From Candidatus Merdinaster equi (lineage in GTDB: Bacteria; Bacillota; Clostridia; Lachnospirales; Lachnospiraceae): a DNA stretch of 64,000 bases. Position 1 is the first letter of the stretch. Each line of letters begins with the position of its first letter. Below the pieces are notes generated by a model. The model worked only from the letters and a program-made list of their open reading frames with translations. It ran no database searches and had not been told where the DNA came from. Location of the stretch: positions 21,432 to 85,431 of the forward strand of contig JAGHUF010000004.1 in the NCBI GenBank assembly GCA_018064935.1. Direction: 5' to 3'. Below are positions 23,357 through 41,300 of this stretch, one piece after another. Both the position numbers and the translations under genes were made by a program.

Positions 23357-24559
23357 TCAAAGTGCAGAATTCTTCTCCTCATACTCATCTAACAATGAGA
23401 GAATCTTGGCTGAGTCTTCCTTGTACTCAAGCACCATCCTTCTGATTTCTTCCATGCTGGTATCCGACAGCCTCTCACCGTTCTCAATCTGCTTACGAAG
23501 CGTCTGTCTTCTAACATTGTACTTATGCCTAATCTCGACCATTTCCTTCGGATTGAGTATCGCTTCATATTGATATATCCAGATAGTCGGGTCAAACAGA
23601 TTATATTTACGAAGCAGCCTTAACATATCTTTCTGATAATAATCAAGGTCCTCCATAACGCGGGCATACTCTGCTCTCAATTCTTTTTCTCTTCGATAAT
23701 CCTCAAGAAGCTTCTCTATCTTCCTCGAGGAATCATATCCATACTTGAGGTAATAATAATCGAGAAGATTTGTATTATTCACATAGCGAATCTTCACACG
23801 GTTCTGAAGCAAAATCAATTTGTCCATATTGCGGTTGATTCTATCGAGTTCCTGATCCGCATCCTTAAATCTTACAAATACAATAGTGAGCACCGTTGCA
23901 GTTATAAGAATTGCCATGATATATCCCAGCCTTACATCCATCTTGAGATATATCTGAAACAGCACCAATGCAAAAATAAGTATTCCCATTGCACCCAGGC
24001 ATACTTTGGCAACAGTCTTCAGATTCATCATAAGACCTGCCAGCTCACGTCTTCTCACATGGAAAGCCTGATGCTCGGCATCAAGTCTTTTTAAGTCGTG
24101 ATGAATTAAACTCTGGTAATCTTCTGTCTCACGAAGCTTGACAATACCTTCCTCAAGTTCAAGCTCATTAGCTTCTATCTCATGGAACTGTTCATCTGAC
24201 ATCGCCCCCTTATGAATTGGGTTTGAATTTCTTGATGTTTCAAGATTCTGCAGATTCTTACAACACGCAATAAGCTGCGAACGCTCGTCCTTAGGAAGTG
24301 CATCCAACTCCTCAATATCGCACAGATACGACGTCACTGACTGGTACTCACTCGACAGAGATTTGACATTGGACTTCGCATCCTGAAGCTGATCGAGTAA
24401 GCTTCTTACATAGGTCTCACGTCCCTCAGAGCTTGATAAATCAAAGTCTTCTCTTCTAACCTGATAGGCCTCGCTTTCCTTAAGTTCTTCTGACTCGGCC
24501 TCTACTTCTTCATATTCTTTTTTTCCACGGAAACCAAATAGTTTCTTAAATAGTCCCAT
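23357..24559 (-). CDS. uncharacterised coiled-coil / 2-TM / coiled-coil membrane protein (module gene 4)
   Basis: 400 aa. Charged heptad-like N-terminal half, two central TM helices (VCLGAMGILIFALVLFQIYL and LGYIMAILITATVLTIVFV), and a charged helical C-terminal half. It starts 3 nt after the upstream stop. Confidence 0.6.
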   Translation of the reverse strand: MGLFKKLFGFRGKKEYEEVEAESEELKESEAYQVRREDFDLSSSEGRETYVRSLLDQLQDAKSNVKSLSSEYQSVTSYLCDIEELDALPKDERSQLIACCKNLQNLETSRNSNPIHKGAMSDEQFHEIEANELELEEGIVKLRETEDYQSLIHHDLKRLDAEHQAFHVRRRELAGLMMNLKTVAKVCLGAMGILIFALVLFQIYLKMDVRLGYIMAILITATVLTIVFVRFKDADQELDRINRNMDKLILLQNRVKIRYVNNTNLLDYYYLKYGYDSSRKIEKLLEDYRREKELRAEYARVMEDLDYYQKDMLRLLRKYNLFDPTIWIYQYEAILNPKEMVEIRHKYNVRRQTLRKQIENGERLSDTSMEEIRRMVLEYKEDSAKILSLLDEYEEKNSAL

Positions 24560-24562
24560 CCG

Positions 24563-25390
24563 TTATTCTCCGCGTTTTCTGTACTCGTTTTTAAGATTCT
24601 CTGACAGCGTCAAAACCTGCTGCTTATATTCAGGTGTCTTCCCTGAATTAATCAGCTCATCAACACACTTCTTCTCATCTGATTGTATGTAAGCAGCTTT
24701 GGCATCTGCTATTCTGGAATCCGCCTCAAACTCCAGCGCTTCAATATCAACATTCGCAATCCCAGACAGTTTCCTCTTTATTGTCGCAGGATCATCATGG
24801 AGCTTAACTGCCATAATATAATTGACCAGGGCCTCTTTGGTAAAAGTCAGATGATACGACTTCTCAAACAGCTCCTGTGCATACTCAAACAAGAATAGTG
24901 AGCAGGCTGATTTTCCCATTGAATTGTATATATCACCAACAAGCAGAAGGTCCTTGTTTCCGACCTGACTGATAAGGAGCTGATAATCATATAGTGCACT
25001 GGCAGCATCGCCCATTGACGCTCTGTGGTCGATTCTTTTTTTCTGCCTCTCATATGGATTCAGTCTACCCGTCTCATTCAGCACTTCCCTGATTCTGACA
25101 AGTTCTTCTCTGGTCACATAATGTGCATACTCAAGTATCGTTGAGACAAAAAGAGCAAACGTGTTAATGCCTCTAAGCACCTGCATCAGATCCCTTGCCA
25201 GATCCCTAAGTCCAAGCTGCATATCAATCCACTCAACCAAGTTCTGTTTAAAGTCATCCTGATCAAGAAGCTCAGCATTTTCAACCAGATAGTAGCACAG
25301 CTCCTCAATGCAGTATATTCCCACACCGCTCTCGCCTATTCTATATGGAGTTGTAGCATAATTACCTATACAGGTTCTAAGCTTACTCAA
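24563..25390 (-). CDS. uncharacterised helical protein (module gene 3)
   Basis: 275 aa. TTG start preceded by AGGAGAAG. No recognised motif. 22-nt gap to the upstream gene. Confidence 0.55.
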   Translation of the reverse strand: MSKLRTCIGNYATTPYRIGESGVGIYCIEELCYYLVENAELLDQDDFKQNLVEWIDMQLGLRDLARDLMQVLRGINTFALFVSTILEYAHYVTREELVRIREVLNETGRLNPYERQKKRIDHRASMGDAASALYDYQLLISQVGNKDLLLVGDIYNSMGKSACSLFLFEYAQELFEKSYHLTFTKEALVNYIMAVKLHDDPATIKRKLSGIANVDIEALEFEADSRIADAKAAYIQSDEKKCVDELINSGKTPEYKQQVLTLSENLKNEYRKRGE

Positions 25391-25412: not shown

Positions 25413-26705
25413 CTATATCTCTATAACATCTTCAACAAGATAGTCCGTCTTCTTAAACAATTCGCCAAATCCCATATCTCTCACCGCAAGCTTCATATGT
25501 TCTTCATCTTCAAAGCTAAGATTAAGCGAGATACGTGACGCCTTCGGCGGTCTTGGCGGAAAGCCCTCCAGAACCATTTGAAGTTGCCTTTTTTCGCGTC
25601 CATTCATTGGCGTAATCACGATTTTTATTGCGGCATCTTCTTCCAATATAAATTCCTTGTATACCTCAATATCAAACCAGTTCGCACCAGCTTCAAACAG
25701 CGGAAGATATTTCTCTTCACCATCTGTCACAGCAAGGATTCCCACGTTAGCCCGAATCTTATCGCGTCCCAGGAAAACATTTTTGAGAGTCACTTCACTA
25801 GGATAAACTTTCTCAGCGGCCCCATAGCATGCACCCTTACTGTATAGATTATTCCCTTGGAATACTCTCTTATTACCGCACATGAACCTGAGCGACTCTT
25901 TCATCCAACCGCCGCCAAATCCATCTCCAATCAGAAAAACAGCATTTACAATCCGTCCATCACACAGCCCCTTTAGCACTTCAAGGAATTTCTCATCCTT
26001 GCGAGCTGATACGACTTCTTTTCTATCTTCATCATCTTCAGGAATTGCTTCCATAATGGACTTATCATGCGTCTGCTGCTCCATGAACGATACAGCCGGG
26101 GACTGTGCCACATTCATTTCCATTCTCATACTCGACAGACCATTTCTTGAATCCAGCAGGAGCAAATCATGTCCACGAAGTTCCTTACCCTGATGCATTA
26201 CATACTGATAAAAGCTTTCTGCATGGCTCTGGAAGAAAAAATGACTCCTGTCCATACTCATTTCTTCCATAACCTGTTCAAGAACACCAATCAGATGAAC
26301 ATCCATATCGTCAGAAGTTATCATAAGATAATCGCTGGCTTCCCCACCAAACACAAAACCGATTTGCGCTAGGGTTCTTTTAATAAATAAGGCAAGAAGC
26401 GATATTGGGCTAAAAGCCTCATCGGCAACTGGTACACTCACTCCTTCGAGCGCTTTACTTACCAGCTCTTTGACCAGGACAACATCCTCATCTGTTTCCT
26501 TTGCAAGCGCCTCCGGTCCCCAATACCACTGATTGACATCCTCTCGTTTGGCAAGCAGTGTAGGGATTGCAAACTGTTCCTTACCTGTAATGGTAGAAAA
26601 AGTTTCTGGTTCCAGCCTGTCGGAATAACAGTAGCTAAGCTGCGATATTGAATTACCAAGTTCAAGTCCGGCTATAAGCCTTCCCTTTTTATCTCGAAAC
26701 AGCAT
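25413..26705 (-). CDS. divergent Hsp70/actin-fold protein with degenerate nucleotide-binding motifs and an Hsp70-like beta substrate-binding domain, no lid (module gene 2)
   Basis: 430 aa. IAGLELGNSISQLSY matches DnaK IGIDLGTTNS. DLLLLDSRNGLSS sits where DLGGGT occurs. AVFLIGDGFGGGWMKESL...SKGACYGAAEKV matches LVGG.tRmP...DeaVA.GAA. LEGFPPRPPKASRISLNLSFEDEEHMKLAVRDMGFG matches L.GIPPAPRG.PQIEVTFDIDANGIL.VSAKD. GAGGTG RBS. Confidence 0.6.
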   Translation of the reverse strand: MLFRDKKGRLIAGLELGNSISQLSYCYSDRLEPETFSTITGKEQFAIPTLLAKREDVNQWYWGPEALAKETDEDVVLVKELVSKALEGVSVPVADEAFSPISLLALFIKRTLAQIGFVFGGEASDYLMITSDDMDVHLIGVLEQVMEEMSMDRSHFFFQSHAESFYQYVMHQGKELRGHDLLLLDSRNGLSSMRMEMNVAQSPAVSFMEQQTHDKSIMEAIPEDDEDRKEVVSARKDEKFLEVLKGLCDGRIVNAVFLIGDGFGGGWMKESLRFMCGNKRVFQGNNLYSKGACYGAAEKVYPSEVTLKNVFLGRDKIRANVGILAVTDGEEKYLPLFEAGANWFDIEVYKEFILEEDAAIKIVITPMNGREKRQLQMVLEGFPPRPPKASRISLNLSFEDEEHMKLAVRDMGFGELFKKTDYLVEDVIEI

Positions 26706-26711
26706 TTGTTG

Positions 26712-29700
26712 CTACACCTCACTGCGGAACAACTGTCCAACAACATATTTCTTCTCTGAATAATTCTCATATACAGAATTGAATGTCATATATTCACCAA
26801 GATTTCCTGCAACCATCATATCATTCAGTAGCGCATATCTTGAGTCTGGTGATACTTCGTTAGTATCATTCTTGCTAATAGTGTCACTCTGTGTAAGCTG
26901 CTCTTCCCCATCTCTATTCTCAGTAATGTAATACTGAAGCGTCTCCCCGAAAAAGAGAACAAACGAGTACACATATATATCTCTGTACATTCTCTTCATC
27001 GGAATTGTAAGATATTCAGCCTCGCCGGTTCCTCGCTCAATGCAGTAGTGGATAGTAACATCCGTTCCACCTTCCGCATGATATTCAATCATTGTCTGGT
27101 CAAGTATGAGCGACAATGACGGGAGCACCTTGCCATAATTTCTGAAGAACGGGAACACAATGCTCTTTCCCATGAATTCCTCCAGGAAACGGACGCATAA
27201 CTGCAGTGTCTCCTCACTTCTGTCCGCGCAATCTGCATAGTATTTGAGATATGCAAGTTTACAAACATCCTGAAGTTCCTCACCACGATAAAACAATCTC
27301 GTGTAGTAAGTCCACATTTCACTGTCCATCACCTGCTCATCTTCAAAATAACCCTGTGCTTCGCTAGTGAGGAATGCAATCTCCACAACCTTCTTTGCAC
27401 CATTTTTCACATATGAGTAGAACAGCTGATTCTTCTCGCCAACATAGCAGCCTGTAAACAAATATTGGACGATTATCCTCTCGCACAGCTCATTCACATC
27501 TAAGTCAAACTCACTTCCGGCTTTCCACAAATCACGCAGATTCCTTATAGTGCCCTGATAATATGCTATAAGATAACGAAGCAGATTCTCATCATATCTT
27601 TTTTTGCGGAAAATAGAGAATGCCAGTGTCAGCAAAGTGTCATCCTCTTTGTATTCCATTCGCACTATGAGCCTGCTGACAAGTCTTATCAGAATATTTC
27701 CATCCGCAAGACCTTCCCCATACTGTGCCAGCCAGCTGTATGCCACATCATACATTCCTCGGTTTACAAGAAGCTGAAGGAATTCGGCCCTTTCCTTCTC
27801 ACCCATTGTTGCCGGACTAACATCAGCAAGTATTTCATCGACTTCAGAAATCAAATCATTCTCATAATAGAATTTTGCCAGGCGAAGCCTGATTTCCTTG
27901 CGGAACGCTTCAGTTATTCTGTCTGACTTCCACAATCTTCTAAACGAAACCGCATTCTTTACAGTGATTGTAATTCCATTTTCTGTATTGCCACATAGAT
28001 GAAGATCAAGACCTAAATGAGTTGATACTCTTTCACCAATAATTTTTATAAACCTGCCCGGAATCATTAGTTTTTCAATATCATACAATTCCTCGCTGGC
28101 AATACGATTTCCACCTGCATCCTGGAGAACAATACTGTAATCCGAACTGTACACCGGAACTATAGCTTTGCCACCCACAACAGGATATGTCATCTCTCCT
28201 TTTAGCTTGTCATAAATAATTACAAGCTGACGGATACTCTCATCATTAACAGTTATCAAATGCGAAAACAAAATTGGAACAAAGGCTTCTACTAACTGCT
28301 CATCTCTGAGCACTGCCTCATTGACAAGTTCCTTGTATAAATATGCCAAATCCCGCGTTATATGGCTTTGACGAATCTGGTCAATAACAAATTCTTCAAT
28401 AAGAGTCCTGTATGTATCATATATTTCTGGGAACTTATCCCTATACCTGTAAACGTTTGCATAAAGGAATGCTTTTTTGTCATATGACAATTCTGAATGA
28501 TATGCAAAGTACATCATAATCATCTTAGGGAGCTCTCTTGTGTAACTCTCCGGAATCGCCATCATATAGTATTCAAACAATCTGGTTACCCTGAGTTCAC
28601 GCTCTACTCCAAGGCTATACCAGGCAAATTCCTTCTCCGAAGTTTTATTGCCTCTTATCAGCATGGTACATATCAGTTCAAGCGTATCATCATCCTCGGC
28701 CACCTGATAACACTTCTCCAGAATAAACAGAAGTCTTGATGAATATGTTCTGGTTCTCTGAACCAGTGCATGAATCTGCAGAATCAGATCTCTTTTGAGC
28801 AGCTCTTTTTTAGCCGCAAAGTTGAGTATCTGAAGTTCATATTCCGTAAGCTTCATGAGAAGGGTGGGGTTTGCATTGAGAAGCGTCAGAGCCTCCACAT
28901 AGAGAACCGGGCTTATGCAGCCACCATAAAACTGCTGTTCTAAGAACATCCACTTCTTATAAGGACTTTTCGCAAATTCCTCACGAAGATACAAAAGCAG
29001 CCATGCTATTCTCCAATTATCTGAATACCTTGCATATATATCTTCCACCTTGGAAGTAACCTGATTTACGTACTCCTCGTCTCTATTAACCAAGCTGGTC
29101 AAATAAAGATAATAGCAGTATTCCTCAGGCTTAGAATCTGTTTTCTCCAATTCAGCTTCTACTCGACCAAGAATCCACTTTGCTTCATTCACTCTGTCCT
29201 GCGTAATAAGAATCTGCGCCTGAAACATACGTGCAGATAGATTTTTCTCATCAATGGCATTCATTCTGTCGACTATATCCGCAGTATTTTTAAGCCACAT
29301 GTCTGAGGATATCTTTTTTAATCTGAATGCAGTGTAATACTCCATGAGACTAAGAGTAAGTTCCTGCATTTGCTTCTTAACAGACCTGCGGAGTGCACGA
29401 CTGTATGGACGCGTAACCAAAACTGGAATCTCAATAGATGTGTAAGGACTATAAATATGAATCTTACCGTAGTTATTACCTGCATGAAGCTTGGATGAAT
29501 CCACATAATAACTAAATGTACAGATATTTCCCAGAAAATTATCATCAGTCAGATAGTTCTTCTCTGTAGACAGAAAATCGCCATCAGTTTCTATTGCAAG
29601 TGCTGTTAATCCCCAGCCATTCCTTGTAATAGTCACCTTACCTTCTTCAACATCGTACGGATCTTCTATTCTGATATGTTCCTCCATCGGGAGGTATTCA

Positions 29701-30272
29701 ATCTTCTGTTTTTTATTAATCGCATTGAGAAAAGAATCGACATTCTGCTCATTGCCACGAATTCTTGATAATCCACGATATATTCCGAGATATTTTAGAT
29801 CATTTCCATGAAATACAGATGTAAACTCAGAGCTATAGAATAAAGACACTGCCTCAGACCAGTTACTCTTAGCCAGATTGGCAAAATGGAACAGATTCTT
29901 GACTGGTCCCATTGATGAACTTATTACGCCATGCATGGCTGACACAGAATATGGAATCACGCACTCGCCCGCGCTGCTTATGATAGATATTTCACCCTTC
30001 TCAATATCACCCTCTTCAAGCCCATCAGCTTTGAATGAATAATATATTTCCGCATTTTTCCCCTCGAAGGTGCTGGTGAGAATTTGCATCCGCATAGACG
30101 AAGAAAAAACCATCCCCTTGACGCTCTGTCCATCATCTGTGGACACACTAAAAGAACCCTGCTGGGTACTCTGATCGCTTAGGGATAGTTCAATCCGATT
30201 AACAGAAACAACAAGGGTGCTTCTGTCGTAATTAAATTTTCCTTCCGTTATATTGCGGACTGTCTGCTGCAA
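26712..30272 (-). CDS. uncharacterised 1186-aa protein: two N-terminal beta-sandwich-like segments, long alpha-helical-repeat body, C-terminal beta domain (module gene 1)
   Basis: TTG start with AGAGGA 8 nt upstream. I found no Walker A, nuclease, protease or TM motifs. Composition alternates beta-rich stretches (ISIISSAGECVIPYSVSA, KIHIYSPYTSIEIPVLVTRP) and Y/L/E-rich helical stretches. Confidence 0.6.
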   Translation of the reverse strand: MQQTVRNITEGKFNYDRSTLVVSVNRIELSLSDQSTQQGSFSVSTDDGQSVKGMVFSSSMRMQILTSTFEGKNAEIYYSFKADGLEEGDIEKGEISIISSAGECVIPYSVSAMHGVISSSMGPVKNLFHFANLAKSNWSEAVSLFYSSEFTSVFHGNDLKYLGIYRGLSRIRGNEQNVDSFLNAINKKQKIEYLPMEEHIRIEDPYDVEEGKVTITRNGWGLTALAIETDGDFLSTEKNYLTDDNFLGNICTFSYYVDSSKLHAGNNYGKIHIYSPYTSIEIPVLVTRPYSRALRRSVKKQMQELTLSLMEYYTAFRLKKISSDMWLKNTADIVDRMNAIDEKNLSARMFQAQILITQDRVNEAKWILGRVEAELEKTDSKPEEYCYYLYLTSLVNRDEEYVNQVTSKVEDIYARYSDNWRIAWLLLYLREEFAKSPYKKWMFLEQQFYGGCISPVLYVEALTLLNANPTLLMKLTEYELQILNFAAKKELLKRDLILQIHALVQRTRTYSSRLLFILEKCYQVAEDDDTLELICTMLIRGNKTSEKEFAWYSLGVERELRVTRLFEYYMMAIPESYTRELPKMIMMYFAYHSELSYDKKAFLYANVYRYRDKFPEIYDTYRTLIEEFVIDQIRQSHITRDLAYLYKELVNEAVLRDEQLVEAFVPILFSHLITVNDESIRQLVIIYDKLKGEMTYPVVGGKAIVPVYSSDYSIVLQDAGGNRIASEELYDIEKLMIPGRFIKIIGERVSTHLGLDLHLCGNTENGITITVKNAVSFRRLWKSDRITEAFRKEIRLRLAKFYYENDLISEVDEILADVSPATMGEKERAEFLQLLVNRGMYDVAYSWLAQYGEGLADGNILIRLVSRLIVRMEYKEDDTLLTLAFSIFRKKRYDENLLRYLIAYYQGTIRNLRDLWKAGSEFDLDVNELCERIIVQYLFTGCYVGEKNQLFYSYVKNGAKKVVEIAFLTSEAQGYFEDEQVMDSEMWTYYTRLFYRGEELQDVCKLAYLKYYADCADRSEETLQLCVRFLEEFMGKSIVFPFFRNYGKVLPSLSLILDQTMIEYHAEGGTDVTIHYCIERGTGEAEYLTIPMKRMYRDIYVYSFVLFFGETLQYYITENRDGEEQLTQSDTISKNDTNEVSPDSRYALLNDMMVAGNLGEYMTFNSVYENYSEKKYVVGQLFRSEV

Positions 30273-30312: not shown

Positions 30313-31365
30313 TTAAGGGGTGTTCAAACGCAATATTTTTACCCTCTGAATGAACTCTCTGATAGTGTTCATCCCAGCTGGTGAGGTTCCCCCAGTTGTG
30401 ACCGCTCCGGCAGAGGCAGCTATGCTTATTTTAAGCTTCTGCTCCATATCCTCGCCCCGCTCACTTGAATAAGAATAAGCAGCTACGAGAGCATCTCCTG
30501 CACCTACGGTAGATATCGCATCAACCTCGAGTGCCGGACAGTAATAATGGGTATCCTGAATCAGAAAAAGAGCACCCAATTCACCAAGAGACACAATAAC
30601 CTCTCTAACCCCCTGCTCGCGCACCAGATTCCCCATCAGGTAGGCCGATGTAATTAATGAAATCTCAGAATCCGAAAGGCCATCACCTGCCTTTTCCCCT
30701 ATGCCTGCTTTCTTCAATTTTGCTTCCACACGGCTAAGGAGTTCCTGTTTTTCAGTCCTTTTCTCATCCAGATGAAAGCCCGAATTCTCTATGTATTTCT
30801 CAAGTTCTTCATAATTAGGCTTTACTATATCCGGAACACATGAAAGGGCTTTGATAAGGCCTTCTCCATCTGCGTCTACAAACGCAAAAGCACCCTTGTC
30901 ATGAACGAGGGTGATCAGTTTATCATATATGTCTGTATTTATTCCTTTGGGAAGGGAACCGCTTATTATTACATAATCGCCAATTCTGATAGCATTTGTA
31001 AGCTTATCAAATAATCCTGCCAGCTCATCCTCAGTTATCTCAGGACCAGGTTCATTAATCTCAGTAACAAAGCCATCATCACCTGTGACCTTCAGATTAG
31101 TCCTTGTGGCCTCACGAATTCTGACGAAGTCATGCTCAATATGCATCTTGTCAAGGGTGTTGGCTATCTGCCACCCTGCCATTCCTCCCAGAAAACCTAC
31201 TGCGAGAGATTTGCCACCAAGACTTTGTATCGTCTTGGAAACATTTATCCCCTTGCCACCGGCGTCTTCTCTGACGCCGGTAACACGGTTTAATTTTCCT
31301 ACTTTAAGTGCCGGCACACTAACAGTTTTATCAATTGCCGGATTCATTGTAATTGTAATAATCAT
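30313..31365 (-). CDS. PfkB-family sugar(-phosphate) kinase (1-phosphofructokinase / tagatose-6-P kinase-like)
   Basis: MIITITMNPAIDKT, DAGGKGINVS and TVGAGDALVAAY are PfkB signatures. The ATG at 31365 is 1 nt past the htpG TAA (31367-31369). The track start (TTG at 31377) would overlap htpG by 11 nt. Confidence 0.8.
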   Translation of the reverse strand: MIITITMNPAIDKTVSVPALKVGKLNRVTGVREDAGGKGINVSKTIQSLGGKSLAVGFLGGMAGWQIANTLDKMHIEHDFVRIREATRTNLKVTGDDGFVTEINEPGPEITEDELAGLFDKLTNAIRIGDYVIISGSLPKGINTDIYDKLITLVHDKGAFAFVDADGEGLIKALSCVPDIVKPNYEELEKYIENSGFHLDEKRTEKQELLSRVEAKLKKAGIGEKAGDGLSDSEISLITSAYLMGNLVREQGVREVIVSLGELGALFLIQDTHYYCPALEVDAISTVGAGDALVAAYSYSSERGEDMEQKLKISIAASAGAVTTGGTSPAGMNTIREFIQRVKILRLNTP

Positions 31366-31366
31366 C

Positions 31367-33430
31367 TTATTCTGCAAGAAGGAGCATTATCTTGTTAGTA
31401 CGTGCAACAAACTTAGTCATAGCTTCAGGATCAAGTGGTGCCTGCTGAAGAAGTGCCATATCATAGAGCTGTTCGCAGATAACACTTACATTATCACCTG
31501 ACTGATTATCCAGAATATACTGTACAAGCTTGTTATTGGCATTCAGAGTAAGAGTCATTCCCTCTTTGCCCATTCCGCCAGGCATACCCATTCCAGCCAT
31601 TCCGTACATCTTCATCATATCCTGCATACGGCGTGTTTCCTCAGAAAGAGTAATCATTGATGAAATGTCTTTATTCTTAAGATTCTCAAGCTTAACAGAA
31701 ATATTGTCCTTCTTAATTATCTTCTTGAAGAGCTTTTCTAAATCCTTGCTCTTTGCCTCTAATTCTTCAGCCTGCTTCTTGCTGGTTTTACCCTTCAGTT
31801 CATCATTGATGTCAGCATCGATTCTCATGAAGTGAATTCCTTCATTCTTAGATTCAAGCTGGCTGATGAATGGTTGGTCAATATTATCCTTAAGAATAAT
31901 TGCATCCTTCTTAGCCTTGCGGAACATATTGATGTACTGGCTCTGCTGAACTTCATCAGTTACGTAGTAGATGACCTTATTCTTCTCTTCTTTTTCATCT
32001 GCATCAGCATCCTCACCAGGCTTGATTTCCTCAGCTTCAACCTTCTCTCCGCTCTCTGCATCAACCGCATCAGCTGCATTCTCATCGCTATCAGGATCTG
32101 TAGCTTTAACTTCAAGGCATTCTGGAAGCGTCTCATATTTGCCGTCAAGATTCTTAAAGAGAATGTAATCTGTCATCTTCTCACAGAACTTATCATCCTT
32201 AAGACATCCATATTTGATAAATGGATTGATATCATCCCAGTACTTCTCATACTCCTCTTTCTCAGTCTTGCACATTCCTGAGAGCTTATCTGCAACCTTC
32301 TTAATGATGTAATCTGAAATCTTCTTAACAAATCCATCATTCTGAAGGGCTGAACGTGATACGTTCAATGGAAGATCAGGACAGTCAATTACTCCCTTTA
32401 AGAGCATAAGGAATTCAGGAATAACCTCCTTGATATTATCAGCGATAAATACCTGATTATTGTACAGTTTGATAGTTCCTTCGATAGACTCATACTCCAT
32501 GTTAATCTTAGGGAAGTACAGGATACCCTTTAAATTGAATGGATAGTCCATATTCAAATGAATCCAGAACAGAGGCTCCTTGTAATCATGGAATACCTTT
32601 CTGTAGAATTCAACGTAATCTTCCTTGGTACATTCAGTTGGATTCTTGGTCCAAAGAGGCTGTGTATCATTCAGAAGTTCTGGGCGCTTTGCAATCTTCA
32701 GTTTCTTAGCATCGCCCTCCTTCTCAGGAGCTATTTCCTCAATCACCTTATCCGAATCAAGCTTCTCGCTCTCTTCGATAGTCTGAGTATCAGTTGTGTT
32801 CTCCTTTGACAGATAAATCTCATAAGGCATGAAAGAACAATACTTCTTAATAACCTCGCGCGCTTCATATTCATTACAGAACTTGAGTACATCCTCATTG
32901 AGGAAAAGAGTAATCTTTGTTCCTACTTCCGCCTTGTCTCCTTCTTCCATATCGAACTCTGTTCCACCATCACATTCCCAGTGAACAGGCTTTGCTCCCT
33001 CTTTATAAGAAAGCGTATCAATATGAACCTCGTCAGCAACCATAAATGCCGAATAGAATCCCAGACCAAAATGACCAATAATCTGATCATCTCCAGCCTT
33101 ATCTTTATACTTCTCAATAAAATCTGTAGCTCCTGAGAATGCAATCTGGTTAATGTACTCCTCAACCTCATCAGCTGTCATTCCAAGACCATTATCTATA
33201 AAAGTAAGAGTCTTTTTCTCAGGTGAACATATTACCGAAATCTGTCCCTTGAAGCCCTCTGGAAGCTCATATTCTCCCATCATGTCCAGCTTCTTCAGCT
33301 TGGTAATTGCATCACAGCCATTTGATATTAACTCTCTGTAAAAAATATCATGGTCAGAATATAACCACTTCTTAATTATTGGAAAAATGTTATCAGAATT
33401 AATTGATAAGCTACCATGTTTTGATGCCAT
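31367..33430 (-). CDS. htpG: molecular chaperone Hsp90
   Basis: FYRELISNGCDA, DNGLGMT and GHFGLGFYSAF are the GHKL Hsp90 motifs. Start is set at MASKHG (33430), 9 nt downstream of AAGGGAG. The track start at 33469 lacks an RBS. Confidence 0.95.
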   Translation of the reverse strand: MASKHGSLSINSDNIFPIIKKWLYSDHDIFYRELISNGCDAITKLKKLDMMGEYELPEGFKGQISVICSPEKKTLTFIDNGLGMTADEVEEYINQIAFSGATDFIEKYKDKAGDDQIIGHFGLGFYSAFMVADEVHIDTLSYKEGAKPVHWECDGGTEFDMEEGDKAEVGTKITLFLNEDVLKFCNEYEAREVIKKYCSFMPYEIYLSKENTTDTQTIEESEKLDSDKVIEEIAPEKEGDAKKLKIAKRPELLNDTQPLWTKNPTECTKEDYVEFYRKVFHDYKEPLFWIHLNMDYPFNLKGILYFPKINMEYESIEGTIKLYNNQVFIADNIKEVIPEFLMLLKGVIDCPDLPLNVSRSALQNDGFVKKISDYIIKKVADKLSGMCKTEKEEYEKYWDDINPFIKYGCLKDDKFCEKMTDYILFKNLDGKYETLPECLEVKATDPDSDENAADAVDAESGEKVEAEEIKPGEDADADEKEEKNKVIYYVTDEVQQSQYINMFRKAKKDAIILKDNIDQPFISQLESKNEGIHFMRIDADINDELKGKTSKKQAEELEAKSKDLEKLFKKIIKKDNISVKLENLKNKDISSMITLSEETRRMQDMMKMYGMAGMGMPGGMGKEGMTLTLNANNKLVQYILDNQSGDNVSVICEQLYDMALLQQAPLDPEAMTKFVARTNKIMLLLAE

Positions 33431-33491
33431 ATAATTCATCTCCCTTTCTATATACATGCCATTTATCACGGCAAATTATTACGATATTTTC

Positions 33492-33527: not shown

Positions 33528-33554
33528 TTAGCACTCACTAAACATGAGTGCTAA
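33528..33554. promoter_or_regulatory. CIRCE operator (HrcA binding site), perfect consensus TTAGCACTC-N9-GAGTGCTAA
   Basis: TTAGCACTC at 33528-33536, a 9-nt spacer, and GAGTGCTAA at 33546-33554. It overlaps the stop codon of the PrsA-like gene and abuts the htpG -35. Confidence 0.85.
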
Positions 33555-34677
33555 TAGTCATGAAAAAATCTGTTGTTTTTACATCTTCATCAGAGATTAT
33601 TGTTATCTCTTTCCACAGCTCATCATTGATATTCTTTGTGAGCTTTGCAACAAATTGTTCATATATCTCGTCAAATACAGCTTTCTTTCTCTCATCGACA
33701 ATTTTTATTTTATTATTATCTGTCTCATCTTTGTCAAAAGAAGAAATACATCTGATAATCTCATATCCATCCGGCGTCTCTACAATGTCCGATATTTCTC
33801 CATTGCCCAGAAGAAATGCAGCCTTTTCAAATTCAGGTTCCATATCGCCATGCATAAACGAATAGAAATTATCTGCAGCCTCATTGTACTCAAGCATAAT
33901 AGATTCGAATTCTCCAGGCCTTACAGCTTCCTCCACGACATTGCCTTCGTCATCTAAAACTGCTTCTTTTCCCTTCACCAGCTCAAGGACTGCCAGTGCT
34001 CTTTCATAGGCTTCCTGCTTCATTCTGCTCGTGAATTCAATCTTCTCCCCTTTTCCATTAAGCGAATAGGTCTTAATCAGGATATGCTCAACAGTTATGG
34101 TTCGCGCTTCATCATCGGATATTTCAGGATTAATGTCCTTTACTATGTAGTCATATGTCTTTTCAGCAAGCACATATTCTGCATACATTTTCTGGATATC
34201 TTCCAAAGAGACATCTAGTACTTCCAGTTCCTTATCACTTAGCGACATAAAGTAATCTTTTGCCGCCTGCGTTACCGCATCATTCTCTTCCTGCGTCAGC
34301 TCAACACCCTGTTCTCTGGCCAGAAGAACCATCGCCTTCACTCGGGATATTCTGGCCAGAACTGTGTCCTTTAATTTATCCTCAAGTGTAAGTCCTTCCT
34401 CACCAGAGGATTTCTCCCATATCTGTGAATCAAGTATGTTCTCATACTGATTCTGTGTATTTATTAGATACACCATGAACTCTTTTTGAGAGCAGGACAG
34501 ATTCTCAATACGAAACAGCTCTCCGGCACCGAAACCATCTGTAAGAACGATCTTGGTCTGCGGTACATTTTCACCGTCTCCCCCTGCCGCACAGCCTGTT
34601 AGTGCAATGATAAAAACAGCACCTAGCATCGCTGCAAGAGCGCTTCCCTTTTTTATGTTTTTTGGCTTAAATTTCAT
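33538..34677 (-). CDS. PrsA-like peptidyl-prolyl isomerase lipoprotein (parvulin type)
   Basis: 379 aa. Lipobox IIALTGC. Rotamase domain ITVEHILIKT...EFEKAAFLLGNGEISDIVETPDGYEIIRC. Confidence 0.75.
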   Translation of the reverse strand: MKFKPKNIKKGSALAAMLGAVFIIALTGCAAGGDGENVPQTKIVLTDGFGAGELFRIENLSCSQKEFMVYLINTQNQYENILDSQIWEKSSGEEGLTLEDKLKDTVLARISRVKAMVLLAREQGVELTQEENDAVTQAAKDYFMSLSDKELEVLDVSLEDIQKMYAEYVLAEKTYDYIVKDINPEISDDEARTITVEHILIKTYSLNGKGEKIEFTSRMKQEAYERALAVLELVKGKEAVLDDEGNVVEEAVRPGEFESIMLEYNEAADNFYSFMHGDMEPEFEKAAFLLGNGEISDIVETPDGYEIIRCISSFDKDETDNNKIKIVDERKKAVFDEIYEQFVAKLTKNINDELWKEITIISDEDVKTTDFFMTISTHV

Positions 34678-36863: not shown

Positions 36864-38477
36864 TTAATCGTCGCCCCTATCCCACTTGTCCGCAAGTGAA
36901 GTAATCTGATCTGCAAACCTTGCAAGGTCTTTGTTTGCTCCACCTTCGTTCCTTCGTATAACAGCCAGGAGGTGCTGACCAGCGGCGAGAAGTCTTGCAA
37001 AGACATCTGATGCCTTCTGCGCTTTCTTCTTTGGCGCGATAGGCACTGGAACTGCGTCATAATCAATACAGTTATTGGCAAGATCATAAACAGAACCACT
37101 GTAAGGTGCGTAGGTATCATAATCATATTCATCACGCAGGCAGGCCGCAAAGCTCTCTGTTACAGAATCTTCTCCGTGGACAATAAATACTTTATCCGGT
37201 TTTCTTTCGAACTTAGAAAGCCATTCAATCAATCCGTTTTTGTCAGCATGTCCTGAAAGTCCGGCAAGAGTCTTAATTGTCGCACGAACATTGATTGTCT
37301 CACCGAACAGCTTTACTTCTTCTGCGCCATCGACAAGCATTCTTCCAAGTGTTCCAACCGCCTGATAACCTACAAACAGGATAGTACATTCCTCTCTCCA
37401 GAGATTATGCTTAAGATGATGTCTGATACGCCCTGCCTCACACATTCCTGACGCAGAAATGATAACCTTGGGTGTGTCATCAAAGTTAATCATCTTAGAT
37501 TCATCAGAGGTAATTGCGAGATTTAACCCCCTGAACGTGATTGGATTAATTCCTCTTCTGACGATTTCCATCGCCTCTTCATCAAAACAGTCTGCTATAT
37601 TCTTCTGGAATATTCCCGTCGCCTCCACAGCCAGCGGGCTGTCGACGTACACTGGGAAATCAGGATAATTGCGTACAAGCTTGTCCTCTTTTATCTGTCT
37701 GATAAAATACAGAATCTCCTGTGTTCTTCCAACCGCAAAAGAAGGAATAACCACATTTCCCTTTTTCTCAAAGGTCGTCTCGAGGACGCTCGCAAGCTCC
37801 TTCACGTAATCAACACGCTCCTTGCTGTGAAGCCTGTCGCCATACGTGGATTCCATTACAACATAATCAGCTTCAGCAGTCGCGATTGGATCCTTTATCA
37901 GCGGCTGGTTCTTATTACCAATATCCCCCGAAAATACGATTTTCTTATCGATTCCCTCTTCTGAAACCCAGATTTCAATACTTGCAGAGCCAAGCAAATG
38001 TCCTATGTCAGTAAATCTGATCTTTATTCCATCACACAGCTCTATTGTATCTCCGTAGCGAACCGGAACCAGAAGTTTAATGGTACCATCTGCATCTTCC
38101 ATTGTATATGCAGGTTCAACGAGTTCTGTGTTTGAACTTCTCTTATTCTTACGATTCTTCCACTCACACTCAGCCTGCTGAATGTGCGCACAGTCACGGA
38201 GCATGATGCTACATAAATCTACGGTTGCAGTAGTTGCAAATATTTGCCCCCTGAATCCGTTAGCATACAATAGCGGAAGCATTCCAGAATGGTCAACATG
38301 TGCATGCGTAAGGAGCACATAATCAATCATTGATGCCGAGACAGGCAAATCCACATTTTCAAAAACATCAACGCCCTGCTGCATTCCGTAATCAACAAGG
38401 ATATTTTTACCACAGGCTTCCAGATAATGACAGCTTCCAGTAACCTCATGGTCTGCACCGATAAAATTCAGTTTCAT
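36864..38477 (-). CDS. MBL-fold beta-CASP RNA-metabolising hydrolase
   Basis: MKLNFIGADHEVTGSC...LLTHAHVDHSG (HxHxDH), followed by beta-CASP and RNA-specificity-like regions. Start is set at 38477 behind AGGTGGGGAAGGT. The track start at 38543 has no RBS. Confidence 0.8.
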   Translation of the reverse strand: MKLNFIGADHEVTGSCHYLEACGKNILVDYGMQQGVDVFENVDLPVSASMIDYVLLTHAHVDHSGMLPLLYANGFRGQIFATTATVDLCSIMLRDCAHIQQAECEWKNRKNKRSSNTELVEPAYTMEDADGTIKLLVPVRYGDTIELCDGIKIRFTDIGHLLGSASIEIWVSEEGIDKKIVFSGDIGNKNQPLIKDPIATAEADYVVMESTYGDRLHSKERVDYVKELASVLETTFEKKGNVVIPSFAVGRTQEILYFIRQIKEDKLVRNYPDFPVYVDSPLAVEATGIFQKNIADCFDEEAMEIVRRGINPITFRGLNLAITSDESKMINFDDTPKVIISASGMCEAGRIRHHLKHNLWREECTILFVGYQAVGTLGRMLVDGAEEVKLFGETINVRATIKTLAGLSGHADKNGLIEWLSKFERKPDKVFIVHGEDSVTESFAACLRDEYDYDTYAPYSGSVYDLANNCIDYDAVPVPIAPKKKAQKASDVFARLLAAGQHLLAVIRRNEGGANKDLARFADQITSLADKWDRGDD

Positions 38478-38570
38478 ACCTTCCCCACCTTTCCTGTTTT
38501 CAATTGCATAAAACCCCAAAAATACATAAATATTGTACCACATAAGTGCCTATTTGTGCATATATATGCT

Positions 38571-41300
38571 ATGATAGAAAGCATGACAGAGCAGAAAAAT
38601 AGCAGAATCACTATCGGCATAGTCGCCCATGTAGATGCTGGAAAAACAACATTATCAGAGAGCCTTTTATTTGGTTCAGGTGTTATTTCGTCTTCAGGCA
38701 GAGTGGATTCGGGAAACACGTTCCTGGATACTGATGTCGTCGAAAAAGAACGTGGCATCACCATATATACCAAAAATGCTCGAATTCCTATTTCGGGGGA
38801 CAGACAAGCCGGCGAATTCATCCTTATTGATACCCCCGGTCATGTTGATTTTGGTCCCGAGATGGAGCGCGCTCTGTCCGTGATGGATTATGCAATTCTG
38901 CTGATCAGCGCACCCGAAGGAATCCAGTCGCATACTCGCACTCTGTGGAGTCTTCTCAAATCCTATCGCATCCCAACACTCATATACGTGAATAAAACAG
39001 ACATAAAGGGCGTGGACTGCGATAGCCTGATGTCACAGATTAAAAACAAACTGTCGGACTGCGCCATTTCTTTCAAGGGTCTTCAGGAGACGCACGAAAT
39101 CGGCTTTGAGCTCACGTCCGAAATGTGCGAAGAAATTGCTGCTACTGACGAAGTTCTTATATCTGAGTTTCTTGAATCGAATGAACTCTCAATGTCATCA
39201 GTACAGAGCGCTTTTAGCAATCGTTCTTTTTTTCCAGTATTATTCGGCAGTGCATTAACACATGAGGGTACTGCTTCTCTTTTATCTGTAATAAACCGCT
39301 TATTTATGACCTCCGAAGCAGGTGCGACTGATAATCAGTGCGAACCTGGCGGAATAATATACAAAATCACCTACGATAAGCAGGGAAAGCGATTGGCCTT
39401 CCTAAGAGTCACAAGCGGAACCCTGAGGGTGAGAAGTGTACTCGGGGATGAGAAGATTACTGAGATAAGAATCTATTCCGGAGAGAAATATTCACAGGTA
39501 GGGGAGGTATCGGCCGGTGAAATATGTGCCATTCCCGGACTCACTTCTTATCAGGCAGGTGACACATTTGGCAAATCGCAGACGATAAAAAGTAGGCTCC
39601 TTACACCAGCAATATCTTATGCCGTTCATTTTCCTATTGAACTAAACCAGAATGTCAACACTGACACGCGTGAAATGCTGCGAGTTATGGAACAGCTCAC
39701 GGAAGAAGATCCTTCTCTTGCCACCGAATATAATGAGCAGATGAGAGAGATTCAGGTTCGGCTTATGGGTGATATCCAGACTCAGATACTGAAGCGAACT
39801 TTGCTTGACCGATTTGGACTCAATGCTGAATTTGGAGAAGGAAAAATCTGTTACAAAGAGACGGTTGACGCTTCTACCATTGGTGTTGGGCACTTCGAGC
39901 CCCTTCGCCATTATGCTGAGGTTCAGCTGAGAATTGAGCCACTGCCACTGGGAAGTGGTCTGGAATTTGCATCAGAAGTATCCGAGGATTTGCTTGATAA
40001 GAACTGGCAAAGATTAATAATGACACATCTCCAGGAGCGCGAACATCGCGGTGTTTTAACTGGCGCCCCTATTACTGATATCAGATTCACAATTGTCGCT
40101 GGAAGAGCGCACAACAAACACACTGAGGGCGGCGATTTCAGGCAGGCCACCTACAGGGCTATACGACAGGGACTTATGAAGCTATTCGCCACAGACAATT
40201 GCAGACTTTTGGAGCCTTACTACGACTACACCTTAAGACTTCCTGAGTCCAATGTCGGACGTGCAATGACCGATATTTCTGCCATGCCGGGAACCTGTAA
40301 TATTTCAGAGAATGATTATGATAACGGAATCACTGTTCTGACAGGAACTGCCCCTGTCAGTGCGATGAACCACTATACCTCAGATGTAATCGCCTATACA
40401 AAAGGTCTTGGTCAGCTGTCCTTCAGCGTATCTGGCTACGGACCATGTCACAACGAGGCAGAGGTTCTGAGTTCTACACGCTATAACCCTGATGCAGATT
40501 TGCGAAACCCTTCCTCATCAGTATTCTGTTCTCACGGAGCAGGAACAGTTATCCCCTGGAACGAAGTTGATTTGTATAAGCATCTCGATTATTCGGACGG
40601 CTATTTCACAGACAGAAGTTTGCAGGACTCGGAAGAAGAAAGTGCCGCCGCCAACAAGCAGAGGCGTTTATTCGAAAATATGAATAACGCAATCAGCACC
40701 GAAGAAATTGATTCCATTCTTCAAAAGAGTTCCCATGCTAACGCAGAGGGAAGAAAAGGTTCCTATAAAGGTATCTCCGAATCTCTGAGAAGGACAAGGC
40801 TTGAAAAATCAAAGTCTGATTCTAGTTCAGAAGCAAAGTATAAAGGTTCTCCGAGAAAAGAGCCTTATCTTCTCGTGGATGGCTATAACGTAATCCATGC
40901 CTGGGCGGAGCTGAGCAGCTTAATGGAAGCCTCTATCGATGCCGCTGCCGGAAGACTCAATGATATCCTCAGTAGCTATCAGGCCATTACAGGCGTTCAT
41001 CTGATTGTCGTTTATGATGCATATAAAGTAAAAGGACATTCCACAGAGGAAATGTCCTATCACAATATCACAGTTGTATATACTCGTGAAGCCCAGACTG
41101 CAGATCAGTATATAGAGAGATTTGCTCATGAGAATGCATCGAAATACGAAATTACCGTCGTTACATCCGATGGGCTAGAACAGATAATAATAAGAGGTGC
41201 CGGTGCACTTCTCATCTCCTCAAGAGAATTCGAAGATATTGTCAATCAGAGGAGAACTGATTTCAACGCCACACACAACATTACGAGCGATGAGGAGTAG
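38571..41300 (+). CDS. TetM/EF-G-family translational GTPase fused to a C-terminal Rae1/YacP-type NYN ribonuclease domain
   Basis: G1 AHVDAGKTT, G2 RGITI, G3 DTPGH and G4 NKTD, then EF-G-like domains II-V. A Ser/Lys/Glu-rich linker follows. Residues encoded by 40860-41297 read PYLLVDGYNVIHAW...LIVVYDAYKVKG...ITVVYTREAQTADQYIE...VVTSDGLEQ, which aligns motif for motif with B. subtilis YacP/Rae1. The start could be 38571 or 38583, and the RBS is weak. Confidence 0.8.
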   Translation: MIESMTEQKNSRITIGIVAHVDAGKTTLSESLLFGSGVISSSGRVDSGNTFLDTDVVEKERGITIYTKNARIPISGDRQAGEFILIDTPGHVDFGPEMERALSVMDYAILLISAPEGIQSHTRTLWSLLKSYRIPTLIYVNKTDIKGVDCDSLMSQIKNKLSDCAISFKGLQETHEIGFELTSEMCEEIAATDEVLISEFLESNELSMSSVQSAFSNRSFFPVLFGSALTHEGTASLLSVINRLFMTSEAGATDNQCEPGGIIYKITYDKQGKRLAFLRVTSGTLRVRSVLGDEKITEIRIYSGEKYSQVGEVSAGEICAIPGLTSYQAGDTFGKSQTIKSRLLTPAISYAVHFPIELNQNVNTDTREMLRVMEQLTEEDPSLATEYNEQMREIQVRLMGDIQTQILKRTLLDRFGLNAEFGEGKICYKETVDASTIGVGHFEPLRHYAEVQLRIEPLPLGSGLEFASEVSEDLLDKNWQRLIMTHLQEREHRGVLTGAPITDIRFTIVAGRAHNKHTEGGDFRQATYRAIRQGLMKLFATDNCRLLEPYYDYTLRLPESNVGRAMTDISAMPGTCNISENDYDNGITVLTGTAPVSAMNHYTSDVIAYTKGLGQLSFSVSGYGPCHNEAEVLSSTRYNPDADLRNPSSSVFCSHGAGTVIPWNEVDLYKHLDYSDGYFTDRSLQDSEEESAAANKQRRLFENMNNAISTEEIDSILQKSSHANAEGRKGSYKGISESLRRTRLEKSKSDSSSEAKYKGSPRKEPYLLVDGYNVIHAWAELSSLMEASIDAAAGRLNDILSSYQAITGVHLIVVYDAYKVKGHSTEEMSYHNITVVYTREAQTADQYIERFAHENASKYEITVVTSDGLEQIIIRGAGALLISSREFEDIVNQRRTDFNATHNITSDEE

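Follow-up and report, generated by a model that had tools for sequence, protein, structure and literature searches.

Hsp70 is one of the most conserved and best-studied protein machines, and to our knowledge its bacterial members are known almost only as ATP-driven chaperones (DnaK, HscA and HscC). In Hsp70, subdomain IIB of the nucleotide-binding domain (NBD) provides the adenine and ribose pocket as well as the contact for GrpE or other nucleotide-exchange factors. A different use of the fold is exemplified by Ssz1, a lidless pseudo-Hsp70 of the eukaryotic ribosome-associated complex. It binds ATP without hydrolysing it, and Zuo1 complements its β-sandwich substrate-binding domain (SBDβ) with an N-terminus whose residues 1–7 serve as an in-built pseudo-substrate (PMC7083937). 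The window analysed here, i.e. a stretch of 64,000 nucleotides from Candidatus Merdinaster equi of the Lachnospiraceae (assembly GCA_018064935.1, contig JAGHUF010000004.1, positions 21,432 to 85,431), contains a gene of the DUF5716 family whose product presents an Hsp70 minus its engine: the fold, the interdomain linker and the peptide-binding sandwich are kept in its predicted structure, whereas neither lid nor subdomain IIB is left and most catalytic residues have been lost. DUF5716 is an ancient, highly diverged Hsp70 paralogue that combines an NBD without IIB, a hydrophobic linker and a complete SBDβ without a lid. On balance, we think it probable that it is a non-catalytic, Ssz1-like Hsp70 derivative serving as a clamp or scaffold subunit of a conserved four-gene module.

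25413..26705, minus strand: DUF5716-family gene encoding a 430-aa lidless, IIB-less Hsp70-fold protein (open reading frame, Pfam, AlphaFold2 and Foldseek)

Sequence likeness to Hsp70 is marginal, and it is the structure that carries the argument. An AlphaFold2 model of the protein, built from an alignment of 54 DUF5716 sequences only and without templates, reached a mean predicted local distance difference test score (pLDDT) of 90.6 and a predicted template-modelling score (pTM) of 0.87. When this model was compared with the PDB using Foldseek, the best 50 matches were all Hsp70 proteins (E from 1.9e-18 to about 1e-13), including DnaK (mycoplasma and mycobacterial proteins among them), BiP, Hsc70, mortalin, Ssb, Ssz1 and Sse1, and the alignments extended over about 494–561 columns, covering both the NBD and SBDβ. 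The top template-modelling scores of 0.58–0.60 (root-mean-square deviation 7–8 Å) were obtained for DnaK in its domain-docked ‘stimulating’ state (7kru, 7krv, 7krw), as compared with 0.43–0.50 for undocked ADP-state structures, and the high pTM suggests that the NBD and SBDβ are predicted as a fixed, docked arrangement. The original prediction, made from the DNA letters and their translations, had proposed a compact Hsp70-like protein and named the ASKHA/Hsp70 fold as the point to be checked; the modelled structure bears this out, showing an NBD, a hydrophobic linker and an eight-stranded SBDβ.

Profile comparison points the same way. Against a reference profile of 10 sequences (E. coli DnaK and nine plasmid-borne DnaK/HscC genes), hhalign placed residues 8–430 of DUF5716 colinearly on DnaK 1–514 with E=1.2e-5; taken by domain, the NBD gave E=3e-5 and the SBD E=4e-5, with reversed-sequence controls at 0.44 and 0.086, respectively. 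Since a profile–profile alignment at E of about 1e-5 with clean reversed controls reproduces it, the by-eye pairing with DnaK landmarks offered in the original prediction is real. All of the peptide strings quoted there are present in the translation, namely IAGLELGNS (residues 11–19), DSRNGL (185–190), FLIGDGFGGGW (257–267), GACYGAAEKV (291–300) and LEGFPPRPPKASRISLNLSFEDEEHMKLAVRDMGFG (379–414). Alignments of the DUF5716 profile with single YegD, FtsA and MreB sequences gave no signal; as a single DnaK sequence gave none either (E=0.12), hhalign against single sequences is powerless here and says nothing on YegD.

Judged by its sequence, the protein is a clear member of a catalogued family: Pfam DUF5716_C (PF18980) covers residues 127–429 at E=2.2e-90 and 303 bits (cut-off 34.7), and the database names of relatives also read DUF5716. 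This model spans only residues 127–429, and its name says nothing of function or fold. The 430-aa open reading frame begins with ATG and is judged real, with a Shine-Dalgarno sequence (GAGGTG) 9 nt 5′ of the start codon, within the last codons of the preceding DUF5717 gene, in a window of about 41% GC whose genes are strongly biased to the minus strand. A hypothetical protein from a metagenome-assembled genome (MAG) of the Lachnospiraceae matches its product at 100% identity, and orthologues measure 415–445 aa. Conventional sequence searches overlook the relationship to Hsp70: Pfam HSP70 (PF00012) is absent from the protein even at E≤1, no NCBIfam model matches any of the four module proteins, and neither phmmer with the single protein nor the 54-sequence family profile (E≤10) found an Hsp70 among PDB chains. 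The sole PDB sequence match, 3cyn (glutathione peroxidase 8), was rejected as an artefact: the family motif FFQSH.ESFY (residues 156–166) happens to look like ENLYFQS, the TEV-site tag that many PDB constructs retain. Searches of a full-text literature library for DUF5716, DUF5717 and Hsp70-like proteins in Lachnospiraceae returned nothing relevant.

Along the chain, the elements of the modelled protein follow one another in the Hsp70 order:

25791..26705, minus strand: NBD-like region, residues 1–305 (secondary-structure order of the model; colinear hhalign alignment)
26631..26675, minus strand: phosphate-1 hairpin, residues 11–25 (IAGLELGNSISQLSY), in which hhalign equates E15 with DnaK D8, G17 with G10 and N18/S19 with T11/T12
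26112..26168, minus strand: degenerate phosphate-2 hairpin, residues 180–198 (DLLLLDSRNGLSSMRMEMN), in which hhalign equates D185 with DnaK D194 and SRNGL stands in place of GGGTF
25905..25940, minus strand: adenosine-motif remnant, residues 256–267 (VFLIGDGFGGGW; column counts, model strand 253–259)
25821..25880, minus strand: most conserved block of the family, residues 276–295 (C-RNRRVFQGNNLYSKGAC-YG), counterpart of the final strand and helix of subdomain IIA in Hsp70
25758..25781, minus strand: hydrophobic interdomain linker, residues 309–316 (NVFLGRDK), gap-free with DnaK 388–394 (D-VLLLD-V)
25416..25757, minus strand: SBDβ-like eight-stranded β sandwich, residues 317–430 (model strands; hhalign alignment of the SBD)

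The predicted NBD starts with the phosphate-1 hairpin (residues 10–27 in the model), continues through subdomain IB and a long IA helix up to residue 119, and then forms the IA strand/helix pair at 126–170. Further on, a long helix (226–248) with an invariant D237 is the counterpart of the Hsp70 DFD helix. From there, a joint of 4 residues leads to the adenosine-motif strand, where DnaK has the ~85 residues of subdomain IIB; this subdomain is thus deleted, which explains why the DUF5716 NBD is ~80 aa shorter than that of DnaK. In the linker, L312 corresponds to DnaK L390 and D315 to D393, and the family consensus reads V/I-F/Y-L-G-x-D/E; the gap-free register was set by hand from the equivalence of G322 with G400, with the hhalign alignment alongside. 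The strands of the modelled SBDβ lie at 319–327, 330–337, 348–354, 359–366, 373–378, 390–398, 403–413 and 423–429, and its loops pair with those of DnaK as LLDAGxNW with LIxRNTxIP, ITPLNG with HVLQGE, and D-L-G-F-G with D-K-N-S-G. Because the chain ends directly after β8, with residue 430 immediately behind this strand and orthologues no longer than 445 aa, there is no room in the model for an α-helical lid, whose absence had been noticed at the outset. An acidic, variable and gap-rich insertion (IPEDDEDRKEVVSARKD; residues 205–221, 26043..26093, minus strand) separates strand three of IIA from the long helix and differs widely in both length and sequence among orthologues.

Conservation was assessed by counting alignment columns in 83 orthologues, i.e. 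the window protein and those of 82 genomes. The positions equivalent to the nucleotide-binding residues of DnaK are occupied as follows:

DnaK D8, position 15: D in 75, E in 8
DnaK G10, position 17: G in 65
DnaK T11/T12, positions 18/19: variable and often charged (D27, N24, E15; D12, K10, R10)
DnaK K70, position 79: E33, D21, T16, K8
DnaK E171, position 160: S71, G8
DnaK D194, position 185: D49, E32
DnaK G196–G198, positions 186–189: variable, with gaps
DnaK T199, position 190: L52, M19, I7
Adenosine glycines, positions 260 and 262: G in 83/83 and 79/83

From these counts, the phosphate-binding and catalytic signature of Hsp70 has been lost family-wide, with the acidic pair (the D8 and D194 equivalents) and the adenosine glycines alone being kept. 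The equivalents of T11/T12, K70, E171 and GGG-T199 are thus not conserved once the family is properly aligned, a check that the original prediction itself had named. Its reading of the phosphate-2 motif, in which DLGGGT is replaced by DSRNGL, is confirmed at residues 185–190, and the loop as a whole is variable with indels in the family. The exchange of Asp for Glu in phosphate-1, by contrast, holds for the window protein (E15) and fails as a family trait: it is specific to the clade of the window protein, most orthologues having Asp at this position and a close relative, P0003, having Gln. K79 is present in the window protein at the best-estimate equivalent of K70, a position where the family mostly has E, D or T. 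For E171, D194 and the phosphate loops, hhalign and secondary structure agree on the equivalences.

Strong conservation is found elsewhere in the protein. In the phosphate-1 hairpin, Q22 and S24 are invariant while positions 18–20 vary; W267 occurs in 81/83 orthologues and L312 in 83/83, and position 315 is D in 69 and E in 13. The block 276–295 contains seven invariant residues (C276, R280, F282, G284, N286, G291 and A292), and those of SBDβ are N320, A339, G340, W343, D410, G412, F413 and G414. Conservation is strongest in C276-RNRRVFQGNNLYSKGAC-293, DAGxNW (338–343), DLGFGE (410–415), Q22-I-S24, R54 and Q59-W60, which makes these residues candidates for partner interfaces. As far as computation goes, the proposal that the protein is a pseudo-ATPase used for client binding is supported; both the loss of ATPase activity and a role as a ‘client-binding subunit’ are what we infer from sequence and fold.

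These losses also make it very improbable that DUF5716 is a working Hsp70-type chaperone running the canonical ATP cycle on free clients in the manner of HscC or HscA. Such a protein would be expected to have the complete SBDβ and the VLLLD-like hydrophobic linker that DUF5716 indeed keeps, but not to lack the lid, IIB, conserved K70, E171 and T199 equivalents and any Pfam HSP70 match. Moreover, neither the three co-operonic proteins nor their orthologues contain a J domain or a GrpE-like domain, so that no such partner is found within the module. With lid, IIB, catalytic set, adenine pocket, exchange-factor site and J partner all missing, DUF5716 would no longer run the ATP-driven Hsp70 cycle.

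What it may do instead is suggested by the genes with which it is encoded. On the minus strand, the module reads DUF5717, DUF5716, p275 and p400, with DUF5716 in second place and gaps of 6, 22 and 3 nt in the window; all four proteins are currently without functional annotation. The partners and their recognisable parts are:

26712..30272, minus strand: DUF5717 protein, 1186 aa, upstream gene of the module (Pfam DUF5717_N and DUF5717)
24563..25390, minus strand: p275, a 275-aa partner containing tetratricopeptide repeats (TPRs), downstream gene (TPR profile and Pfam matches)
24791..25063, minus strand: TPR region of p275, about residues 110–200 (hmmsearch against the PDB; Pfam TPR_2)
25343..25390, minus strand: conserved extreme N-terminus of p275, residues 1–16 (column counts)
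23357..24559, minus strand: p400, 400 aa, last gene of the module (hydropathy; length about 400 aa)
23864..24004, minus strand: two predicted transmembrane helices of p400, residues ~186–206 and 212–232, joined by the short loop KMDVR (Kyte-Doolittle 19-residue windows above 2.4)

A functional tie between DUF5716 and p275 is indicated by natural fusions. Among the matches of the DUF5716 profile are several proteins of 717–765 aa from separate clusters at ≤50% identity, and the five inspected (P0135, P0157, P0169, P0175 and P0265) each consist of a complete DUF5716, a spacer of 11–19 residues and a complete p275. Two of these fusions were checked on their contigs, where they lie between a DUF5717-sized gene (confirmed by Pfam in 1/2) and a p400-sized gene, as expected from the arrangement of the separate genes. 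By Rosetta-stone reasoning, the fusions are evidence of a single functional unit made up of the Hsp70-like protein and its TPR neighbour. In the fusions, the N-terminus of p275 adjoins the end of SBDβ, which is the topology of the engineered DnaK–linker–peptide constructs 7kru and 7krv, the very structures that match the model best. The TPR assignment of p275 rests on its orthologue profile, which matched a consensus TPR protein (CTPR) in the PDB at 5.5e-6 and Tah1, PilF, STI1, TOM70 and UNC-45 at 1e-3 to 0.3, and on Pfam TPR models, which match 13/25 p275 orthologues with a best E=1e-9 (TPR_2). Its N-terminal consensus is M-[GS]-[RK]-[VI]-[IL]-L-[CG]-[TV]-G-x-Y-A-x-x-P-Y. NRLLLTG is the classic DnaK peptide, and the basic-hydrophobic N-terminus of p275 resembles it.

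We favour a reading in which DUF5716 would be a constitutively docked structural subunit whose SBDβ holds its TPR partner p275. By analogy, the likeliest ligand of SBDβ may be the p275 N-terminal stretch [RK]-hydrophobic-hydrophobic-L-C-T-G, which would serve as a pseudo-substrate or add a β strand to the sandwich.

The other two partners lend this unit a putative scaffold and anchor. For the DUF5717 protein, an AlphaFold2 model (pLDDT 86) shows four β-sandwich domains and two long α-solenoids; by Foldseek, its first ~290 aa resemble ASH/MSP-like immunoglobulin domains (ciliary central-pair proteins, CEP192 SPD-2), and its solenoids resemble the TPR-type scaffolds Ski3, Ctr9, Naa15, IFT-A and SYF1. 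No enzyme domain was found in it by Pfam, in the AlphaFold2 model or by Foldseek, and PDB sequence-profile searches with DUF5717 and p400 gave nothing meaningful. The long charged arms that flank the hairpin of p400 are probably coiled coil, and Pfam returned no meaningful match for this protein; with a two-helix hairpin between them, both arms would emerge at one membrane face, presumably that of the cytoplasm. In the relatives L001–L003 (10178..12528), the TPR gene is followed by a tandem pair of p400-like genes, of 393 and 390 aa, rather than by a single one. Together, DUF5716, the ASH/TPR scaffold DUF5717 and the membrane anchor p400 would make up a non-enzymatic assembly at the cytoplasmic membrane face, which may act as a holdase or scaffold for other proteins.

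A membrane-tethering coiled-coil hairpin protein also invites comparison with the logic of PilM–PilN and FtsA, and with it the idea that DUF5716 belongs with FtsA, MreB or PilM among the actin-like ASKHA proteins that polymerise in the cytoskeleton or at the membrane. The ASKHA core fold fits this idea, as does the PilF match of p275, weak and one among many to TPR proteins. Yet the 50 best structural matches are Hsp70 proteins throughout, SBDβ and the linker are Hsp70-specific features absent from actin-like filament formers, and polymers of this kind need a nucleotide site, which in DUF5716 is degenerate, so that we regard a polymerising role as highly unlikely.

Several points weigh against the non-catalytic reading of DUF5716 and its putative grip on p275. 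Literature searches gave no biochemical study of any DUF5716 member. The register of K70, in subdomain IB, comes from a hand alignment to predicted secondary structure and is of moderate certainty, hhalign having chosen another one. The fusions stem from metagenome assemblies, and each of them singly could be a frameshift or read-through artefact, though several are independent. In an exploratory analysis of inter-protein covariation at an effective number of sequences (Neff) of 60, the p275 N-terminus was not paired with the SBD cleft; the pair cluster that emerged, exploratory at this depth, links DUF5716 380–392/409 with p275 38–40. Finally, the acidic pair and the adenosine glycines are retained, and invariant polar residues (Q22, S24, R54, E163, S164, N198, R280 and N286) could line the cleft, which leaves room for nucleotide or another ligand to be bound there in a manner unlike that of Hsp70.

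This last point is the basis of a possible, if rather less likely, alternative, namely that DUF5716 is a ligand-regulated ASKHA switch in which ATP, another nucleotide or a phosphorylated metabolite, bound through non-Hsp70 residues, controls the docking of SBDβ or the binding of partners. The metal-ligand-type acidic positions 15 and 185 are D or E in 83/83 and 81/83 orthologues, G260 and G262 are near-invariant, and Q22, S24, R54, E163, S164 and N198 lie beside what used to be the phosphate loops; Ssz1, too, binds ATP without hydrolysing it (PMC7083937). However, both phosphate loops are variable in sequence and often acidic, the second varies in length as well, the adenine pocket lacks its IIB wall, and P0003, the closest relative, does with Gln at the D8 equivalent.

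That the four genes belong together is evident from their distribution. They occur in the same order and on the same strand at 82/82 loci analysed, with median gaps of 18, 14 and 11 nt; DUF5717 and p275 were each found at 82/82 loci and p400 at 81/82, the exception lying at a contig edge. With one genome scanned per species, relatives turned up in at least 565 genomes, and a profile search of 1.84 billion representative proteins returned 1845 clusters at E≤1e-3. Among the matches listed, almost all are labelled Lachnospiraceae or genera thereof, the rest being labelled Clostridium, Clostridiales or Bacillota, plus one MAG labelled Bacteroides; Kineothrix, Butyrivibrio, Acetatifactor and Suilimivivens are counted here as genera that we take to be Lachnospiraceae. 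The strict four-gene module is hence present in at least 82 Lachnospiraceae species, probably in more than 565, and appears to be universal in the family. One divergent DUF5716 cluster belongs to Shuttleworthia, and carriers of the module in culture include Kineothrix alysoides, Butyrivibrio sp. VCD2006 and Shuttleworthia satelles. Butyrivibrio and Shuttleworthia are not known to form spores, nor is Shuttleworthia known to be motile, which makes a sporulation or flagellar device unlikely. In the Butyrivibrio MAG NALB_7823_4, two module copies (L079, L080) lie on two scaffolds, which may mean that the module is truly duplicated or that the bin mixes strains.

A multi-gene set of proteins of unknown function, large repeat-rich ones among them, might also be taken for a mobile anti-phage or conflict system with an Hsp70-like component. 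To this we give almost no credence, as PADLOC matched none of the four proteins at E≤1 and the module is a single-copy, core-like locus with fixed synteny (htpG ... module ... pur genes) at every locus examined; nor was a nuclease, protease or NTPase effector domain found.

The surrounding genes are of interest for the chaperone question. HtpG (Hsp90) and PpiC-type isomerase genes lie upstream of the module at many loci and could be cited in favour of a working chaperone, or of an Hsp90/Hsp70-like/TPR triad akin to that of eukaryotic Hop. We rejected such a functional link to HtpG: htpG is upstream at only 47/82 loci with variable intervening genes, no tighter than purB, which is downstream at 63/82, so that the arrangement looks like plain conserved synteny rather than a specific Hsp90 linkage. 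The C-terminus of the window HtpG, ...MLLLAE, has no EEVD-type tail, which likewise counts against a Hop-like triad. In the window, the first 11 nt of a pfkB-family kinase gene (30313..31377) are shared with htpG (31367..33469), both genes being on the minus strand, and the pfkB gene ends 40 nt before DUF5717; a pfkB gene stands between htpG and DUF5717 at only 5/82 related loci. A gene for a PpiC-type peptidyl-prolyl isomerase (33538..34677, minus strand) lies directly upstream of htpG in the window, and one lies upstream of htpG at 23/82 related loci, the two forming a conserved folding-factor pair near the module. A scan for promoters and terminators found sites no more numerous than in shuffled sequence. 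No minus-strand terminator-like site was found between 33527 and the module's end, so that in this genome a single transcript might span htpG, pfkB and all four genes. Two plus-strand open reading frames, 9481..12384 (967 aa) and 38427..41300 (957 aa), stand out in the nearly all-minus window and coincide with local reversals of GC skew.

Although DUF5716 and DUF5717 were already catalogued as families, the combination of Hsp70 losses within a new conserved module is previously undescribed. Going one step further, the four genes could constitute an unrecognised, Lachnospiraceae-specific and membrane-anchored machine, in which a lidless, IIB-less and ATP-independent Hsp70 clamp keeps a permanent hold on a TPR adaptor through the latter's N-terminal pseudo-substrate and, via the 1186-aa ASH/TPR scaffold, organises or holds clients at the cytoplasmic membrane. 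This would be a convergent prokaryotic counterpart of the Ssz1–Zuo1 complex and the first bacterial case of an Hsp70 fold as a non-enzymatic structural subunit; we put it forward as a speculative extension that may well turn out otherwise. In the gut of humans and animals, Lachnospiraceae are a dominant family, and if a membrane-proximal assembly or holdase of this kind exists, these bacteria of major interest for health would have a cellular system that is new. A permanently docked DUF5716 would, if real, also amount to a natural experiment on Hsp70 allostery and give eukaryotic pseudo-Hsp70s such as Ssz1 a parallel in bacteria.

How DUF5716 relates to the described members of the superfamily can be summarised by what each of them shares with it. 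With DnaK (2v7y, 7kru/7krv, 4b9q), which provides the best structural matches, the modelled protein has in common the two-lobed ASKHA NBD, the interdomain linker (V-F-L-G-x-D in DUF5716, V-L-L-L-D in DnaK) and an eight-stranded SBDβ with colinear loops (LLDAGxNW and LIxRNTxIP; D-x-G-F-G and D-x-x-S/T-G). It differs from DnaK in that identity is just 10–14%, lid and C-terminal tail are lacking, IIB is deleted and the catalytic set is not conserved, and in being encoded with a TPR protein, an 1186-aa scaffold and a membrane protein in a module without a dnaJ or grpE partner. The non-DnaK paralogues HscC and YegD resemble DUF5716 in their reduced C-terminal regions, whereas the HscC sequences used here keep GIDLGTTNS and adjoin a gene for a J-domain protein. 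Hsp110/Sse1 and Grp170 (2qxl, 3d2e), which are among the Foldseek matches, are likewise diverged superfamily members that act as co-factors rather than classical foldases; unlike DUF5716, they are larger than Hsp70, keep the lid, IIB and ATP binding, and serve as nucleotide-exchange factors of Hsp70.

The parallel that reaches furthest is that with Ssz1 (6sr6, 5mb9, 7x3k; PMC7083937), one of the top structural matches. Both proteins are lidless with SBDβ complete, and three further features shown or known for Ssz1 are ones that we propose for DUF5716: ATP is not hydrolysed, which is demonstrated for Ssz1 and only deduced for DUF5716; the protein would be a permanent complex subunit instead of a free chaperone; and the N-terminus of a partner occupies SBDβ, as shown for Zuo1 and hypothesised for p275. 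In contrast to DUF5716, Ssz1 keeps a full NBD including IIB and binds ATP-Mg, and its partner Zuo1 is a ribosome-binding J-domain protein, whereas p275 is a TPR protein without a J domain and nothing points to ribosome association of the module. The DUF5716 model, moreover, resembles the docked state, while the linker of Ssz1 is detached from the NBD. The likeness is one of analogy and not of orthology.

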